Below are positions 51,566 through 58,645 of a DNA stretch of 64,000 bases, one piece after another. A model generated the notes under the pieces. The model saw nothing but the letters and a program-made list of their open reading frames with translations, was not told where the DNA came from and searched no databases. Position 1 is the first letter of the stretch; the number at the start of each line of letters is the position of its first letter. Origin of the DNA: an uncultured Porphyromonadaceae bacterium (GTDB taxonomy: Bacteria; Bacteroidota; Bacteroidia; Bacteroidales; Paludibacteraceae). Made by a program: the position numbers and the translations under genes. The stretch lies in the NCBI GenBank assembly GCA_949285425.1, contig CASEAJ010000046.1, positions 4,250-68,249 on the forward strand. Reading direction: 5' to 3'.

Positions 51566-51988
51566 CTACTTTCCGGCACATGCGGGACAAAATCCTTTCA
51601 CCGTGTAATTAATGGAATTAATGACATATCCTTCGGGCAAAACAGCCACCGGTATCTTGATGTCATCAAGGCAAAACGTGCGGTGGCACGCTTCGCAGAA
51701 AAAATGAATGTGACGGTCGCCAACATGGCACACATCGGATGTATTGCGACACAGTTCATACTTTACAGAACCACTGCCATCCTCAAAAGCATGCAGCACA
51801 TGATGTTCCAGCAAGACGGAAAGAGAGCGTGATATGGTCGACTTATCCAACGTGCCCAACTCAGTTTCCAGTTCAAAGAGAGAAATGGGGCTGGTGAGTT
51901 CCGACAATTTCTGTACAATCAGAATACGTGCCGCCGTAGGACGCACCCCCTTATGAATCAGATGTTCTTCACTTTGCTTGCTTAACAT
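51566..51988 (-). CDS. Fur family metalloregulator
   Basis: RPTAAR, DKSTISR, HIHFFCEAC...CPAC. Confidence 0.92.
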   Translation of the reverse strand: MLSKQSEEHLIHKGVRPTAARILIVQKLSELTSPISLFELETELGTLDKSTISRSLSVLLEHHVLHAFEDGSGSVKYELCRNTSDVCHVGDRHIHFFCEACHRTFCLDDIKIPVAVLPEGYVINSINYTVKGFCPACAGK

Positions 51989-52585: not shown

Positions 52586-53968
52586 ATGGCGAACCTAATT
52601 AAGACTAAACGTGGTTTGGACATTGAAATCAGCGGGAAAGCTCAAGAAACCATTGGCAGCGCCCTGCCTTCGGAAGTAATTGCTATCATTCCCGACCATT
52701 ATCACGGCATAGTGCCGAAAGTAATGGTGAAAGCCGGTGAAAAAGTAAAAGCCGGTACGGCTGTATTTCATGACAAAACAGTTGAAAGCATGAATTTCGT
52801 ATCGCCCGTAAGCGGTGAAGTTATTGCCGTGAACCGTGGTGAAAGACGAAAAGTGTTGAGCATTACCATTGCTCGCGACTCAGTAATCGAATACGAAAAA
52901 TTCGATTTCAAACCCCTCGAACAACTTTCGGGAGAAGAAGTGAAAGCCGCCCTGCTGCAAGCCGGGCTTTGGGCCTACATCAAGCAGCGTCCATACGATG
53001 TCATTGCCAATCCGGCAAAAACACCGAAATCCATCTTCATTTCCTCTTTCGATTCCGCTCCGCTGGCTCCGAACAACGAGTTTGTCATGCGAGGACAGTT
53101 CGATGACTTCCAGACCGGTATCAACGCTTTGGCCAAGCTGACTCCCGGAAAGGTACACCTCGGTTTAAAGGCCGGCAGCAAATCGACCGATTTCCGCATG
53201 ATACACGGTGTGGAATTTACCGAATATGAAGGTCCTCACCCAATTGGCAATGTAGGAGTACAAATCAACCACGTTGACCCCATAAACAAAGGGGAAACCG
53301 TATGGACAATTGGCGTGCAAGATGTGCTGTTCATCGGACGCTTGTTCAACAAAGGCATCGTCGACCTGTCGCGCCTTGTTGCATTGACCGGTCCCGAAGC
53401 CTACGAAACACAATACTACCGCACATTACCGGGAGCAAGCATTGCCCCTATCGTAAAAGGAAATGTACATACAGGCATTCCGTTGCGGTACATCAGTGGG
53501 AATGTACTCACCGGGATGCAGGTTGAAGCCGATGGTGTCATCGACCCCTACGCCACACAAATCACCGTACTTGATGAAGGTAGCGAAACGCACGAACTCA
53601 TCGGCTGGGCCATGCCCCGTTTCAACCGTTTCAGCAGTACGAACCTGTATTTCAGCAAACTGTTGAAATGCCCGCTCGTAGAAAAGGCTTTCGGAAAAGT
53701 GCAATTCAAGTGGGATGCGCGCCTCATGGGCGGACGCCGCGGTATCATCATGACCAATGAATATGACAAAGTGCTGCCGATGGACATTCTCCCCGAATTC
53801 CTCATCAAGGCCATGCTCGCCAAGAACATCGACAAAATGGAAAATCTCGGTGCCTACGAAGTGGCCCCCGAAGATTTTGCTCTCTGCGAGTTTGTCGACA
53901 CTTCAAAATTGCCGCTTCAGGCTATCGTTCGTGAAGCATTGGATTATTTAAAATCAGAAGTAGAATAA
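52586..53968 (+). CDS. nqrA: Na+-translocating NADH:quinone reductase subunit A
   Basis: KRGLDI, SPVSG, RGERR, GPHP.GNVG, EDFALCEFVDTSK. Confidence 0.96.
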   Translation: MANLIKTKRGLDIEISGKAQETIGSALPSEVIAIIPDHYHGIVPKVMVKAGEKVKAGTAVFHDKTVESMNFVSPVSGEVIAVNRGERRKVLSITIARDSVIEYEKFDFKPLEQLSGEEVKAALLQAGLWAYIKQRPYDVIANPAKTPKSIFISSFDSAPLAPNNEFVMRGQFDDFQTGINALAKLTPGKVHLGLKAGSKSTDFRMIHGVEFTEYEGPHPIGNVGVQINHVDPINKGETVWTIGVQDVLFIGRLFNKGIVDLSRLVALTGPEAYETQYYRTLPGASIAPIVKGNVHTGIPLRYISGNVLTGMQVEADGVIDPYATQITVLDEGSETHELIGWAMPRFNRFSSTNLYFSKLLKCPLVEKAFGKVQFKWDARLMGGRRGIIMTNEYDKVLPMDILPEFLIKAMLAKNIDKMENLGAYEVAPEDFALCEFVDTSKLPLQAIVREALDYLKSEVE

Positions 53969-53970
53969 TT

Positions 53971-55170
53971 ATGAGCGCATTAAGAAACTATATAGACAAA
54001 ATCAAGCCGAATTTTGAAAAAGGCGGCAAATTCGAAAAGCTTCACTCGGTGTTCGACGGATTTGAAACATTCCTTTTCGTTCCCAACACGACGTCAACAA
54101 AAGGAACACATATACACGACGCCACCGACTCAAAACGCACAATGATTATCGTTGTGCTCGCACTCATACCGGCCATGCTGTTCGGTATGTACAACGTAGG
54201 CTACCAGCACTTCATGGCCATTGGCGAAACAATGGGATTCTGGGGCACATTCTTTTTCGGCTTCCTTGCCGTATTGCCGCTGATTCTCGTTTCGTATATC
54301 GTCGGTTTGGGAATCGAGTTCATCTCGGCACAAATAAAGGGTCATGAAATACAGGAAGGTTTTCTTGTAAGTGGTTTTCTCATTCCGCTTATCGTTCCGG
54401 TTGACACTCCACTGTGGATGGTTGCCGTAGCCACTGCGTTTGCCGTTATCTTCGCCAAAGAAGTGTTCGGCGGAACCGGCATGAACATATTCAACGTAGC
54501 GCTGGTTACCCGCGCATTCCTGTTCTTCGCCTATCCTACCGCCATGTCGGGCGACCAAGTCTGGGTTCGTACCAAATCGGCTTTCGGTTTCGGAGGAGGT
54601 GAAGCCATTGATGCTTTCTCGGGAGCAACTCCCATGGGACAGGTAGGAACGGCTGCAACATCTGCCGTTGACCTCACCGGCATTGTGGGACAACCTTTGA
54701 ACTTCTGGGATGGGGTTATCGGACTGATACCCGGTTCTGTTGGAGAAACATCAATCATTGCCATTGCATTAGGAGCACTTCTCCTGCTCATCACCAAGGT
54801 TGCAAGTTGGAAAACCATGTTGTCCGTATTCCTCGGAGGTGCGTTCATGGGATTCATATTCAACCAGTTCGGACCTGACACTGCCGTTGCCAATTTCCCG
54901 TGGTACAATCATCTGGTATTTGGCGGATTCGCATTCGGAGCTGTGTTCATGGCAACCGACCCGGTAACTTCGGCACATACCGAAACCGGGAAATGGATAT
55001 TCGGATTCCTCATCGGTGCTCTGGCCATCATTATACGAGTACTTAACCCGGGATATGCGGAAGGTATGATGCTCGCCATCCTGTTCATGAACATGTTTGC
55101 CGGATTGATTGACTACTATGTGGTACAGGCAAACATCAAGAGAAGACTGAAACGTGTAACGACAAAATAA
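53971..55170 (+). CDS. nqrB: Na+-NQR subunit B
   Basis: KEVFGGTGMN, SGATP FMN-Thr site, MATDPVT, EGMMLAIL. Confidence 0.96.
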   Translation: MSALRNYIDKIKPNFEKGGKFEKLHSVFDGFETFLFVPNTTSTKGTHIHDATDSKRTMIIVVLALIPAMLFGMYNVGYQHFMAIGETMGFWGTFFFGFLAVLPLILVSYIVGLGIEFISAQIKGHEIQEGFLVSGFLIPLIVPVDTPLWMVAVATAFAVIFAKEVFGGTGMNIFNVALVTRAFLFFAYPTAMSGDQVWVRTKSAFGFGGGEAIDAFSGATPMGQVGTAATSAVDLTGIVGQPLNFWDGVIGLIPGSVGETSIIAIALGALLLLITKVASWKTMLSVFLGGAFMGFIFNQFGPDTAVANFPWYNHLVFGGFAFGAVFMATDPVTSAHTETGKWIFGFLIGALAIIIRVLNPGYAEGMMLAILFMNMFAGLIDYYVVQANIKRRLKRVTTK

Positions 55171-55180
55171 ACAAGAAACT

Positions 55181-56014
55181 ATGGCAACTAAAAAATATAG
55201 ATGTAAAGTGTGCGGGTATATACATGAAGGAGATAAAGCTCCTGAAAAGTGCCCCGTATGCCAAGCTCCTGCATCAGAGTTTGAACTGATTGAGGATGGA
55301 GGCAAAGCAAAGAAAGGCATCGACAAAAACGGCAATGCCTACATAATGGTCTACACGATAGCCATTGTCGTCATTGTAGCGTTGGTACTTTCTATCACTT
55401 CGGGGGCTTTGAAGAGCCGCCAAAACGCCAACGTAGAACTGGACAAGAAAAAACAAATACTCTCGTCACTGCCGGCCGTTGCGCTTGAAGGTGCCGATGC
55501 GGCAAAACTGTTCGCTGATGACATCAAGCATATATATATATTGAACGGGCAAGGCGATGTAGTCAAAGAACTTGATCCGGTAAAAGACTTCAACTATGTT
55601 CCGGCATCAGAAGAATATTTAATTTACATGGCCGAAGTCAATCAGGAAACAAAATGGATTATCCCTCTGAACGGTAAAGGACTTTGGGGTGCCATTTGGG
55701 GGTATATTGCTCTGAATGATGACCGCAACACGGTTAACGGCGTATTCTTCTCGCATGCCAGTGAAACTCCCGGGTTGGGAGCCAACATTGTAACTCCCGC
55801 TTTCCGCGGACAGTTTGAAGGCAAACAATTAATGAAAGACAACAAGTTCGTTTCCATTGCCGTAATGAAAGTCGGACAAACCGCACAAGGTCAAGACCAG
55901 GTGGATGCTCTCTCCGGAGGTACTATCACCAGTAAAGGGGTCGAATCCATGCTCTTGAACAGCATCGCTCCGTATGAACCATTCTTGAAAAAGGCGGCTG
56001 GCATAACTAAATAA
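55181..56014 (+). CDS. nqrC: Na+-NQR subunit C with N-terminal rubredoxin-like domain
   Basis: CKVC-x12-CPVC, then TM anchor, GKGLWG, ETPGLG, DALSGGTITS FMN-Thr site. Confidence 0.93.
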   Translation: MATKKYRCKVCGYIHEGDKAPEKCPVCQAPASEFELIEDGGKAKKGIDKNGNAYIMVYTIAIVVIVALVLSITSGALKSRQNANVELDKKKQILSSLPAVALEGADAAKLFADDIKHIYILNGQGDVVKELDPVKDFNYVPASEEYLIYMAEVNQETKWIIPLNGKGLWGAIWGYIALNDDRNTVNGVFFSHASETPGLGANIVTPAFRGQFEGKQLMKDNKFVSIAVMKVGQTAQGQDQVDALSGGTITSKGVESMLLNSIAPYEPFLKKAAGITK

Positions 56015-56032
56015 CAAAGGAGGAAAAAGAAT

Positions 56033-56656
56033 ATGAAAAGCGATAAATTTAAAGAAACCCTGCTCGGCCCGTTAAACAAGAACAACCCGGTAGTTGTACA
56101 AGTATTGGGTATTTGCTCGGCTTTGGCTGTAACCGTAGAGTTGAAACCGGCCATCGTAATGGGACTTTCGGTAACTGTCATAGTTGCCCTGGCCAACGTA
56201 ATCATATCATTGTTGCGCAACACCATTCCAAACAATGTGCGCATCATCGTACAATTGGTTGTGGTAGCCGCCGTCGTTACCGTTGTAAGTGAAATATTGA
56301 AAGCATTTGCTTATGATGTCAGCGTACAATTGTCGGTATACATTGGTCTTATCATTACAAACTGTATTCTAATGGGACGTCTCGAAGCGTTTGCCATGGG
56401 CAACAAACCTTGGGATTCGCTGCTCGATGGTCTCGGAAACGGGATCGGATATTCATGGATACTGATTGCCGTGGCATTCGTCCGCGAATTGCTGGGTAGC
56501 GGCAAACTGTTCGGTTTCCAGGTAATACCCGAATGTTTCTACGAAGCAGGATATACAAACAACGGTTTAATGCTGATGCCGTCCATGGCTTTGATACTCG
56601 TAGCCTGCATCATCTGGATACACCGTTCAGTGAACAAGGATTTACAAGAAAAATAA
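56033..56656 (+). CDS. nqrD: Na+-NQR subunit D
   Basis: NNP..VQVLGICSALAVT, GLIITNCILMGRLEAFA. Confidence 0.96.
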   Translation: MKSDKFKETLLGPLNKNNPVVVQVLGICSALAVTVELKPAIVMGLSVTVIVALANVIISLLRNTIPNNVRIIVQLVVVAAVVTVVSEILKAFAYDVSVQLSVYIGLIITNCILMGRLEAFAMGNKPWDSLLDGLGNGIGYSWILIAVAFVRELLGSGKLFGFQVIPECFYEAGYTNNGLMLMPSMALILVACIIWIHRSVNKDLQEK

Positions 56657-56672
56657 GAAATTCACATAAGAT

Positions 56673-57317
56673 ATGGAACACGCATTAACATTATTCGTCC
56701 GCTCTATATTCGTGGACAACATGATTTTCGCATTCTTCCTCGGAATGTGTTCATACCTGGCCGTGTCGAAGAACGTGAAAACTTCAATAGGACTCGGTAT
56801 TGCAGTAACATTCGTGCTTCTCATCACTCTGCCGGTAAACTACCTGCTCGAGACTAAGGTACTCAGCAAAGGCGCACTTTCCTGGCTGGGCGATGGTTTT
56901 GCCGATCTCGATTTAAGCTATTTGAGCTTCATTCTGTTCATTGCAGTAATTGCTGCCATTGTACAGTTGGTTGAAATGGTGGTTGAAAAATTCTCACCTT
57001 CACTGTATGCATCGTTGGGTATATTCCTGCCTCTGATTGCCGTTAACTGTGCCATCATGGGGGGAGCCCTTTTCATGCAGCAGCGCGTCGGACTGGAACC
57101 GACCGACCCTAAAGCCCTTACCAACATGCTCGACGTAGTTGCCTATGCCTTGGGTTCCGGTATCGGTTGGGCACTGGCCATTGTCGGTCTGGCCTCCATA
57201 CGCGAACGCCTGGAGTACAGCGATGTGCCGGCTCCGTTGAAAGGGCTGGGCATTACGTTCATCACCGTTGGGTTGATGGCTATGGCTTTCCTCTGCTTCT
57301 CCGGATTGGAAATTTAA
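56673..57317 (+). CDS. nqrE: Na+-NQR subunit E
   Basis: [31 protein letters not shown]. Confidence 0.96.
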
Positions 57318-57355
57318 ATGAAACAGAACGTTGAACGAAAAAGACTTATAAAATT

Positions 57356-58645
57356 ATGATGCTGTTAGAAATAAATTCATTGAGCCTCATTTCCAGTCTG
57401 GTGGTGTTCCTGGTGGTCATCATTCTGCTGGTGGTGATATTGCTCGTGGCTAAGAAGTACCTTGTGGCCTCCGGCAAGGTAAAAATACTCATGAACGGGG
57501 AGAAAGAAATGAATGTGGACGCCGGCGGTTCACTGCTGAGTGCCATGGCGAATGCCGGAGTCTTCCTGCCTTCGGCTTGCGGTGGAAAAGGTTCTTGTGC
57601 CCAATGTAAATGTCAGGTACTTGAAGGAGGTGGTGAAATACTGCCTACCGAACTGGTACACTTCAGCCGTAAACAGGTAAAGGACCACTGGCGGTTGGGT
57701 TGCCAGGTAAAAGTGAAAGGCGACCTTTCCATTAAGGTGCCCGAATCGGTACTCGGCGTGAAGGAATGGGAATGCGAGGTTATCAGCAACAAGAACGTGG
57801 CTACCTTTATCAAAGAATTCATCGTTGCATTGCCCAAAGGCGAACACATGGACTTCATTCCCGGTTCGTATGCCCAGATTAAAATTCCGGCATACAGCAT
57901 GGATTATGACAAGGACATAGACAAGAGCCTTATCGGTGACGAATACCTGCCGGCATGGCAAAAATTCGGCCTGTTCGGCCTGAAATGCCAGAACACCGAA
58001 GAAACCATACGTGCCTACTCCATGGCCAACTATCCGGCCGAAGGAGACCGCATCATGCTGACTGTGCGTATAGCCACACCGCCCTTCAAACCGAAAGAAC
58101 AGGGAGGCGGATTCCAGGATGTAATGCCGGGTATCGCCTCGTCGTACATTTTCACACTGAAACCGGGCGACAAGGTTATCATGAGCGGTCCTTACGGAGA
58201 CTTCCACCCCATATTCGATTCGAAGAAGGAAATGATGTGGATTGGCGGGGGCGCCGGCATGGCACCGTTGCGTGCGCAAATCATGCACATGACCAAGACC
58301 CTGCACACCACCGACCGCAAGATGTCATACTTCTACGGTGCACGTGCGCTGAACGAAGTGTTCTATCTCGAAGACTTCCTGCAGCTGGAAAAAGACTTCC
58401 CCAACTTCTCGTTCCACCTGGCACTCGACCGCCCCGACCCTGCTGCCGATGCCGCTGGAGTGAAGTACACACCGGGATTCGTGCATAACGTGATTTATGA
58501 AACTTACCTCAAGAACCACGAGGCACCCGAAGACATCGAATACTACATGTGCGGCCCCGGCCCTATGAGCAAAGCCGTAGAAGGCATGCTCGACAGCCTC
58601 GGTGTGCCGGCCGAAAACCTGATGTACGACAACTTCGGAGGATAA
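57356..58645 (+). CDS. nqrF: Na+-NQR subunit F
   Basis: CGGKGSCAQC..C 2Fe-2S site, RAYSMAN, GGGAGMAP, YMCGP, DNFGG. Confidence 0.97.
   Translation: MMLLEINSLSLISSLVVFLVVIILLVVILLVAKKYLVASGKVKILMNGEKEMNVDAGGSLLSAMANAGVFLPSACGGKGSCAQCKCQVLEGGGEILPTELVHFSRKQVKDHWRLGCQVKVKGDLSIKVPESVLGVKEWECEVISNKNVATFIKEFIVALPKGEHMDFIPGSYAQIKIPAYSMDYDKDIDKSLIGDEYLPAWQKFGLFGLKCQNTEETIRAYSMANYPAEGDRIMLTVRIATPPFKPKEQGGGFQDVMPGIASSYIFTLKPGDKVIMSGPYGDFHPIFDSKKEMMWIGGGAGMAPLRAQIMHMTKTLHTTDRKMSYFYGARALNEVFYLEDFLQLEKDFPNFSFHLALDRPDPAADAAGVKYTPGFVHNVIYETYLKNHEAPEDIEYYMCGPGPMSKAVEGMLDSLGVPAENLMYDNFGG

Follow-up and report, generated by a model that had tools for sequence, protein, structure and literature searches.

A rubrerythrin-type rubredoxin-like domain (Rd) is fused in frame to the N-terminus of a complete NqrC, a subunit of the Na+-pumping NADH:quinone oxidoreductase (Na+-NQR). 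The gene is the third of a six-gene nqrABCDEF operon in which all subunits were identified, in order. The operon occupies positions 52586-58645 of the window, by which we mean the whole stretch of 64,000 nucleotides that was analysed, and each subunit was assigned by curated NCBIfam models (Table 1).

Na+-NQR is a structurally well-studied respiratory pump, and the conserved, predicted metal centre on its cytoplasmic face would be an addition to it. If this centre is redox-active, NADH oxidation would be linked directly to rubredoxin-dependent chemistry, and the complex would become a concrete candidate for powering peroxide or oxygen scavenging in these 'anaerobes'. From prior work on Bacteroides fragilis, Na+-NQR is reportedly the main NADH dehydrogenase of gut Bacteroidales. 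In Prevotella melaninogenica, nqr is induced at 2% O2 (PMC13492135).

The nqrC gene and its N-terminal domain

The ATG of nqrC (55181) follows the TAA stop codon of nqrB (55168-55170) after a gap of 10 nt, and the list of open reading frames and their translations gives a protein of 277 aa (P0001). Its N-terminus, MATKKYRCKVCGYIHEGDKAPEKCPVCQAPASEFE, contains Cys8, Cys11, Cys24 and Cys27 in the pattern CxxC-x12-CxxC, and the reading frame continues without a stop codon or an internal Met from this Cys domain into KKGIDKNGNAY and the transmembrane (TM) helix. The earlier note on this DNA had claimed an ORF starting 10 nt past nqrB, with these four cysteines at its N-terminus and an uninterrupted read-through into NqrC, and both the coordinates and the translation agree with it. 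TIGR01938 (NqrC) matches residues 48-271 of P0001 with 192.2 bits (cut-off 144), on the same ORF as the rubredoxin-like match described below. The single TM helix is followed by PF04205 (residues 167-260, E 1.4e-16), which includes the predicted flavinylation Thr; this residue, Thr248, is invariant in the alignment of NqrC homologues.

In a Pfam scan of P0001, PF21349 (RUBY_RBDX; 'Rubrerythrin, rubredoxin-like domain') matched residues 6-35 over its full 30-position profile, with 58.5 bits (cut-off 26.5, E 4.3e-16). Among solved structures, it is matched best by the Fe(Cys)4 domain of Desulfovibrio vulgaris rubrerythrin (1RYT residues 153-186, E 1e-9, 19 of 34 residues identical). The Cys spacing is of the rubrerythrin type, as had been proposed from the sequence. 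Classical rubredoxins could be aligned to the domain knuckle by knuckle only; their family, PF00301, scored 11.6 bits, below the cut-off of 23, and there are only 12 residues between the knuckles. The same scan gave weak matches to zinc-ribbon families, no match to PF02915, the diiron four-helix bundle of rubrerythrin proper, and no match at E <= 1 to PF04400 (NqrM). By homology with 1RYT, the four-Cys site may hold Fe in a redox-active Fe(Cys)4 centre.

The second shell of the site differs from that of its solved relative. The CRNC and CAHP motifs of D. vulgaris rubrerythrin are CKVC and CQAP in the NqrC domain, like those of classical rubredoxins, with Asn160 and His179 of the former corresponding to Val10 and Ala29 of P0001. 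The rubrerythrin site has an unusually high potential, which is attributed to its polar second-shell residues. As both are replaced here, the midpoint potential of the NqrC domain is likely to be lower than that of rubrerythrin and similar to that of an ordinary rubredoxin.

The classical rubrerythrin of the same genome retains CRNC and CAHP, and its reverse rubrerythrin opens, like the fused NqrC, with an Rd at the very start of the protein, which is 62% identical to that of NqrC (MKKKWICTVCGYVHEGDEAPEFCPQCKQP...). Many Bacteroidales reverse rubrerythrins have an N-terminal Rd that is 55-68% identical over residues 3-41, which makes the 5' end of such a gene a plausible source from which the NqrC module was derived. 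The Rd of rubrerythrin (D. vulgaris, 1RYT/1B71) and the N-terminal Rd of reverse rubrerythrin belong to the same short CxxC-x12-CxxC family, PF21349; however, rubrerythrins carry a diiron four-helix bundle, whereas the Rd of NqrC comes without one.

In the AF2 model, the rubredoxin-like part of P0001 is a folded three-stranded knuckle domain (pLDDT 78-89), residues 40-48 of the linker are disordered (pLDDT <50), and a long helix (residues 52-94) follows. Across 40 fused homologues, between 19 and 32 residues separate the last Cys from the N-x-Y motif of NqrC.

Judged by codon and homologue comparisons, the domain is translated and under strong selection. Over codons 1-46, comparison with two genomes of the same genus gave 25-26 synonymous codon differences versus 1 non-synonymous difference. 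An N-terminal extension is present in 104 of the best 120 homologue clusters, and the four-Cys pattern is complete in all 104; the remaining 16 begin at the membrane helix with no extension, and a Cys-degenerate form of the extension was found in none of the 120. Since every extended cluster keeps the four Cys and the codon changes are mostly synonymous, the fusion is not a product of chance. Across the 104 clusters, Y13, G17, P21 and P25 are invariant, and G12, F34, K9, H15, E16, S32, E33 and E35 are 92-99% conserved. In 41 fused operons, no part of the protein is better conserved than the Rd segment, with a mean pairwise identity of 69%, compared with 48.5% over residues 52-270 and 54% in the FMN domain.

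Table 1. Features of the nqr operon and of the fused nqrC gene (positions in the window)
Feature	Position	Strand	Basis
nqrA	52586..53968	+	NCBIfam NF003761 573 bits, TIGR01936 473 bits
nqrB	53971..55170	+	NCBIfam NF003756 531 bits
nqrC with N-terminal rubredoxin-like domain	55181..56014	+	ORF, PF21349 + PF04205, TIGR01938
Rubredoxin-like domain, residues 1-38	55181..55294	+	PF21349 E 4e-16, 1RYT match, AF2, codon changes
Cys codons of the rubredoxin-like domain	55202-04, 55211-13, 55250-52, 55259-61	+	
Flexible linker (IEDGGKAKKGIDK, residues 39-51) with the conserved basic KKG motif at its end	55295..55333	+	AF2
Single transmembrane helix of NqrC, ~residues 52-74	55334..55402	+	AF2, alignment to V. 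cholerae NqrC TM
Periplasmic FMN-binding domain	55679..55960	+	PF04205; aligns with 3LWX and 7XK3 chain C
Predicted flavinylated Thr248, SGGTITS motif	codon 55922-55924	+	aligned to SGATLTS (V. cholerae)
nqrD	56033..56656	+	NCBIfam NF006777 310 bits
nqrE	56673..57317	+	TIGR01940 295 bits
nqrF, 'L-type'	57356..58645	+	TIGR01941 568 bits; NqrF tree + alignment

Distribution and variants of the fusion

NqrC homologues were searched for an N-terminal rubredoxin across the Bacteroidales, a check that the earlier note had proposed, and the fusion was found to be patchy and spread over several families. In a family-balanced set of 400 Bacteroidales genomes, NqrC was present in 320 and the fusion in 6, from 4 families; it was absent from the ~393 genomes outside Bacteroidales in a sample of the phylum Bacteroidota. 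Named records with the fusion include Parabacteroides distasonis An897, P. bouchesdurhonensis, P. massiliensis and P. segnis, together with Segatella paludivivens DSM 17968, Prevotella sp. JUN01a and Bacteroides sp. Marseille-P3684, and it was also found in MAGs of Paraprevotella, Alistipes/Rikenellaceae and Paludibacteraceae.

A record titled Desulfovibrionaceae bacterium (L047) contains a Parabacteroides-type operon with the fusion. Its NqrC is the sister of P. segnis NqrC with strong support, and the label of the bin is probably wrong or the bin contaminated.

Fused and unfused forms occur side by side within genera: in genus g1 four genomes are fused (G000-G003) and two unfused (G004/G005), and in genus g37 one is fused (G205) and two unfused (G068/G419). 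Maximum-likelihood trees needed 15 changes of fusion state for the NqrC core and 10 for NqrF, and in both trees at least 9 of the changes are forced by well-supported branches. Certain unfused relatives start with MATKNAETEAQEPKKKG or MAENE(T/Q)KKG (among them MATK...KKKG). In these, the start and the basic linker are kept and the domain is gone, which gives the appearance of a deletion, and such starts look like deletion scars. With at least 9 gains or losses while the rest of the operon stays intact, the module is, on the evidence of the trees, accessory; it has either undergone repeated loss or been transferred through recombination at the 5' end of nqrC. The unfused sister operons can be regarded as natural, built-in controls.

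A mosaic comparison was made between the operon of the window and those of loci L005, L006, L007, L009 and L029. NqrA and NqrB are 80-95% identical to those of the genus-mates G004/G005, while NqrC (50%), NqrE and NqrF (50-78%) have their nearer relatives in other genera of the family (G022, G017, Aphodosoma), NqrF being up to 95% identical to these in comparison windows. The operon thus looks mosaic, pointing to recombination in the stretch from the end of nqrB to nqrE. Elsewhere, an insertion of ~1.9 kb separates nqrD from nqrE in one Paludibacteraceae MAG (L023:7481-9371), and in Bacteroidales UBA6828 one of ~1.7 kb separates nqrE from nqrF (L061:8043-9701).

Across loci L005-L102, the NqrF proteins of Bacteroidales fall into two deeply split types that cut across taxonomy. 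The S-type resembles Vibrio cholerae NqrF; the derived L-type has an insert, DKDIDKSLIG, at ~residues 186-195, the motif PFKPKEQ at ~245 (Lys245), and M310/M312, and neither the insert nor Lys245 is present in V. cholerae NqrF. The fusion is strongly associated with the L-type, which is found in 33 of the 36 fused operons (33/53 L-type operons are fused, compared to 3/35 S-type operons). Covariation of Rd presence with residues of NqrA, NqrB, NqrD, NqrE and NqrF was examined as a possible docking signal. The top columns, NqrF K245, M310/M312 and the insert positions 190-192, proved to be clade markers and were rejected; after controlling for NqrF clade, no covariation with residues of the other subunits was left, and therefore no docking-site signal. 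Since the L-type markers are identical in fused and unfused operons, the association of Rd with L-type NqrF may reflect descent only.

More than one Rd can be present in the same protein. Cluster P0072 (55 members), located within a canonical nqrABCDEF operon (L104), has three Rd domains, and clusters P0225, P0226 and P0227 (5, 27 and 62 member sequences, respectively) have two. The tandem copies are separated by Pro/Gln/Glu-rich linkers, an arrangement in keeping with swinging-arm carriers but not with a structural ribbon that is docked. Separately, four Parabacteroides-type gene calls of 390-468 aa (P0140, P0141, P0154 and P0167) join Rd-NqrC to an Rnf-Nqr (NqrD-like) membrane domain, and may be putative fusions or missed stops.

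These patterns bear on whether the domain has a purely structural role. A four-Cys ribbon, with either Zn or Fe, could stabilise or modulate the helices of NqrC, NqrF and NqrD, for example by damping or gating the NqrC helix, with no electron transfer at all. Many CxxC...CxxC ribbons are structural, and the weak zinc-ribbon matches of P0001, the shift in position of the NqrC helix between NQR conformers (PMC10739449) and the near confinement of Rd to one NqrF clade all agree with such a role. However, the domain matches an Fe(Cys)4 domain of proven redox function by far the most strongly, the NqrF-clade markers do not differ between fused and unfused operons, and both the tandem copies on long flexible linkers and the variable length of the linker are a poor fit to fixed docking. 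The repeated clean loss of Rd also indicates that the NQR complex does not need it. We therefore consider a structural ribbon to be rather unlikely.

Probable placement beside NqrF and a possible side exit for electrons

The helices of NqrC and NqrF are in contact in V. cholerae NQR (PMC9325719, Kishikawa et al.). That of NqrF exits the membrane on the cytoplasmic side toward the mobile [2Fe-2S] domain of NqrF, and this domain must dock on NqrD/E (PMC12174285). Going by the known N-in topology of NqrC, the rubredoxin-like domain is on the cytoplasmic side. As the NqrC helix touches that of NqrF and the Rd is only 8-20 flexible residues away, we infer from the V. cholerae enzyme that it would be found at the foot of NqrF, on the cytoplasmic side, next to the point where NqrF leaves the membrane and where the mobile [2Fe-2S] domain docks on NqrD/E. 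Complex prediction of Rd(1-52) with NqrF, NqrD and NqrE, each supplied as an alignment, gave an ipSAE of 0.00 in both runs, a score that speaks neither for nor against this placement.

The explanation that we favour, to which we give a little less than an even chance, is that the Rd is a swinging-arm Fe(Cys)4 carrier taking electrons from NqrF to rubredoxin-dependent scavengers of peroxide or oxygen. A diversion of NADH electrons to such enzymes was the first suggestion of the earlier note. The domain would bind Fe as Fe(Cys)4 and act as a tethered one-electron carrier, reduced by the [2Fe-2S] cluster of NqrF in the order NADH, FAD, 2Fe-2S, Rd. It could then hand the electrons to soluble acceptors (rubrerythrin, reverse rubrerythrin, flavodiiron proteins or superoxide reductase). 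NqrF and Rd-NqrC would together make up a membrane-bound NADH:rubredoxin oxidoreductase, which would serve as a side exit by which electrons leave Na+-NQR without pumping when the cell is under stress from oxygen or peroxide.

An electron-carrier role is supported indirectly by the closest solved relative being a proven Fe(Cys)4 domain and by the contact between the NqrC and NqrF helices in V. cholerae. A mobile carrier is favoured over a docked ribbon by the variable, flexible linker, by the clean dispensability of the domain and by the variants with two or three Rd copies. Rubredoxin-type centres have redox potentials above those of the 2Fe-2S cluster and flavins of NqrF; an exit would therefore be downhill and an entry into the pump uphill, which favours the side exit. 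Against it, the short tether near the membrane would make soluble partners dock on the complex, and the domain is dispensed with by most functional NQRs of the Bacteroidales (P. bryantii, PMC6560451; PMC8516057). The missing covariation with other subunits and the frequency of free rubredoxin in fused genomes also weigh against it.

A broader proposal, which we hold only tentatively and think somewhat doubtful, is that part of the Bacteroidales, including Parabacteroides distasonis, has an NQR with two outlets, one to the Na+ pump and menaquinone and the other through an Rd arm of one to three copies that would feed rubrerythrin-type peroxidases or oxygen/superoxide reductases. If true, the NADH:rubredoxin oxidoreductase step of oxidative-stress defence would be provided in this way; to our knowledge, that step is not established for these anaerobes. 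The fusion is carried by cultured species (Parabacteroides spp., Segatella paludivivens and Bacteroides sp. Marseille-P3684), making the hypothesis directly testable.

Another use of the same position would be an in-line relay from the 2Fe-2S cluster of NqrF to that of NqrD/E, or an entry point into the pump from a soluble ferredoxin or rubredoxin. The Rd is placed where the ferredoxin domain of NqrF must come near NqrD/E, and the long gaps between NQR cofactors need bridging movements (PMC9325719). The metagenomic protein P0112 (442 aa) could also point in this direction, as it has an added 2x[4Fe-4S] ferredoxin domain at its upstream end, followed by ~100 residues, the Rd, a TM helix and the NqrC core. 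However, P0112 is known from one pig-gut metagenome contig of 6157 bp (L103:3912-6156) with no nqrA or nqrB upstream, and the Rd is dispensable in most lineages. Moreover, a rubredoxin-type centre normally has a far higher potential than the clusters of NqrF and NqrD/E, so that a relay would be an electron trap and an entry would run uphill. Both forms of this explanation are, in our view, improbable. On the P0112 contig, a 207-aa protein with two rubredoxin-type domains is encoded upstream and nqrD downstream, and the contig could be a distinct system or a misassembly.

The domain could also be a built-in maturation factor, a counterpart of NqrM that supplies the intramembrane NqrD/E cluster with Fe or Fe-S while the complex is being assembled. 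NqrM of the proteobacterial NQR is said to have been the subject of work by Kostyrko et al. in 2016. NqrM (DUF539) is likewise associated with NQR and has one TM helix and four conserved cytoplasmic Cys, an architecture analogous to the TM helix and cytoplasmic four-Cys module that Rd-NqrC places next to NqrD. A PF04400 search of the genome gave no match, and control genomes gave none either; NqrM has been described for proteobacterial NQR only (PMC12174285). Unlike Rd-NqrC, however, NqrM has the opposite order of domain and helix and is a separate protein outside the mature complex, and P0001 has no sequence relation to it. Most Bacteroidales assemble an active NQR without the Rd, and tandem copies would make no sense for a maturation factor, so this explanation is very unlikely.

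Finally, the site could tune the activity or stability of NQR to O2 or iron through its oxidation state or its metal occupancy; a redox sensor had also been suggested in the earlier note. Fe(Cys)4 sites are oxygen- and iron-sensitive, and a divergent 140-aa ORF with two CxxC pairs (51566-51988, reverse strand), ~600 bp upstream of nqrA, is weakly Fur-like. Its match to the Pfam FUR family (20 bits) is below the cut-off and no counterpart is located beside nqr in other loci, and it was therefore rejected as an nqr-linked gene. As there is also no evident output domain or partner, and the tandem copies would be left unexplained, a redox or iron sensor is highly improbable.

For the side exit, candidate electron acceptors are present in the same genome (contigs C33, C125 and C49), which encodes a classical rubrerythrin of 191 aa and a reverse rubrerythrin of 184 aa, both separately from nqrC. 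A third match to the rubrerythrin family is weak and has no Rd domain. No classical rubredoxin (PF00301) was found in this 89%-complete assembly. The idea that the tethered Rd substitutes for a free rubredoxin was considered, as the first 11 fused genomes were also without PF00301, but it was discarded when 16 of 30 further fused genomes were found to have it, against a background of 238 of 401 (59%) in the Bacteroidales order sample. Fused genomes are thus not depleted in PF00301, so the Rd is not simply a rubredoxin replacement, and the early pattern can be explained as a lineage effect.

Relation to known proteins

The fused NqrC shares with V. cholerae NqrC (7XK3 and 8A1T, chain C) its place in the operon, the N-in TM helix, the linker helix, the periplasmic FMN domain and the flavinylated Thr motif. 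Vibrio NqrC begins at the TM helix, whereas the fused protein has ~50 extra cytoplasmic residues, the Rd and its linker, in front of it. The NqrC of P. bryantii B14, from a characterised Bacteroidales NQR, is likewise unfused (210 aa; PMC6560451), and the domain is therefore extra with respect to characterised NqrC proteins, as the earlier note had stated for Vibrio.

A structural-genomics entry of P. distasonis NqrC, 3LWX, has a periplasmic domain ~50% identical to that of P0001 (E 2e-46). Its peptides recur in P0132, a 270-aa Rd-fused protein that represents a 90% cluster with 1387 member sequences, and we take this to be the parent-sequence type of 3LWX. The crystallised construct starts after the TM helix (it aligns to residues 76-270), and as a result the Rd domain was never seen in the crystal. 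A study that used 3LWX (PMC4348036) treats the flavin domain only.

No description of the Rd-NqrC fusion was found in the literature searched on NqrC, rubredoxin, Bacteroides NQR and P. distasonis. The homology-modelling paper on P. bryantii and a 2025 review of RNF and NQR (PMC12174285) describe NqrC as a TM helix, a helical linker and a globular domain, and rubredoxin is not mentioned. The architecture is visible in precomputed Pfam annotations; the data are thus public, and the Rd module on NqrC appears to be undescribed in the literature searched.

Redox enzymes with built-in or tandem rubredoxin modules include the flavorubredoxin NorV and the two-domain AlkG. As proposed for Rd-NqrC, these use a tethered or duplicated rubredoxin to shuttle single electrons from an NADH-dependent reductase. 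They are, however, soluble proteins with classical PF00301 rubredoxins, whereas Rd-NqrC carries a short rubrerythrin-type module on a membrane ion pump.
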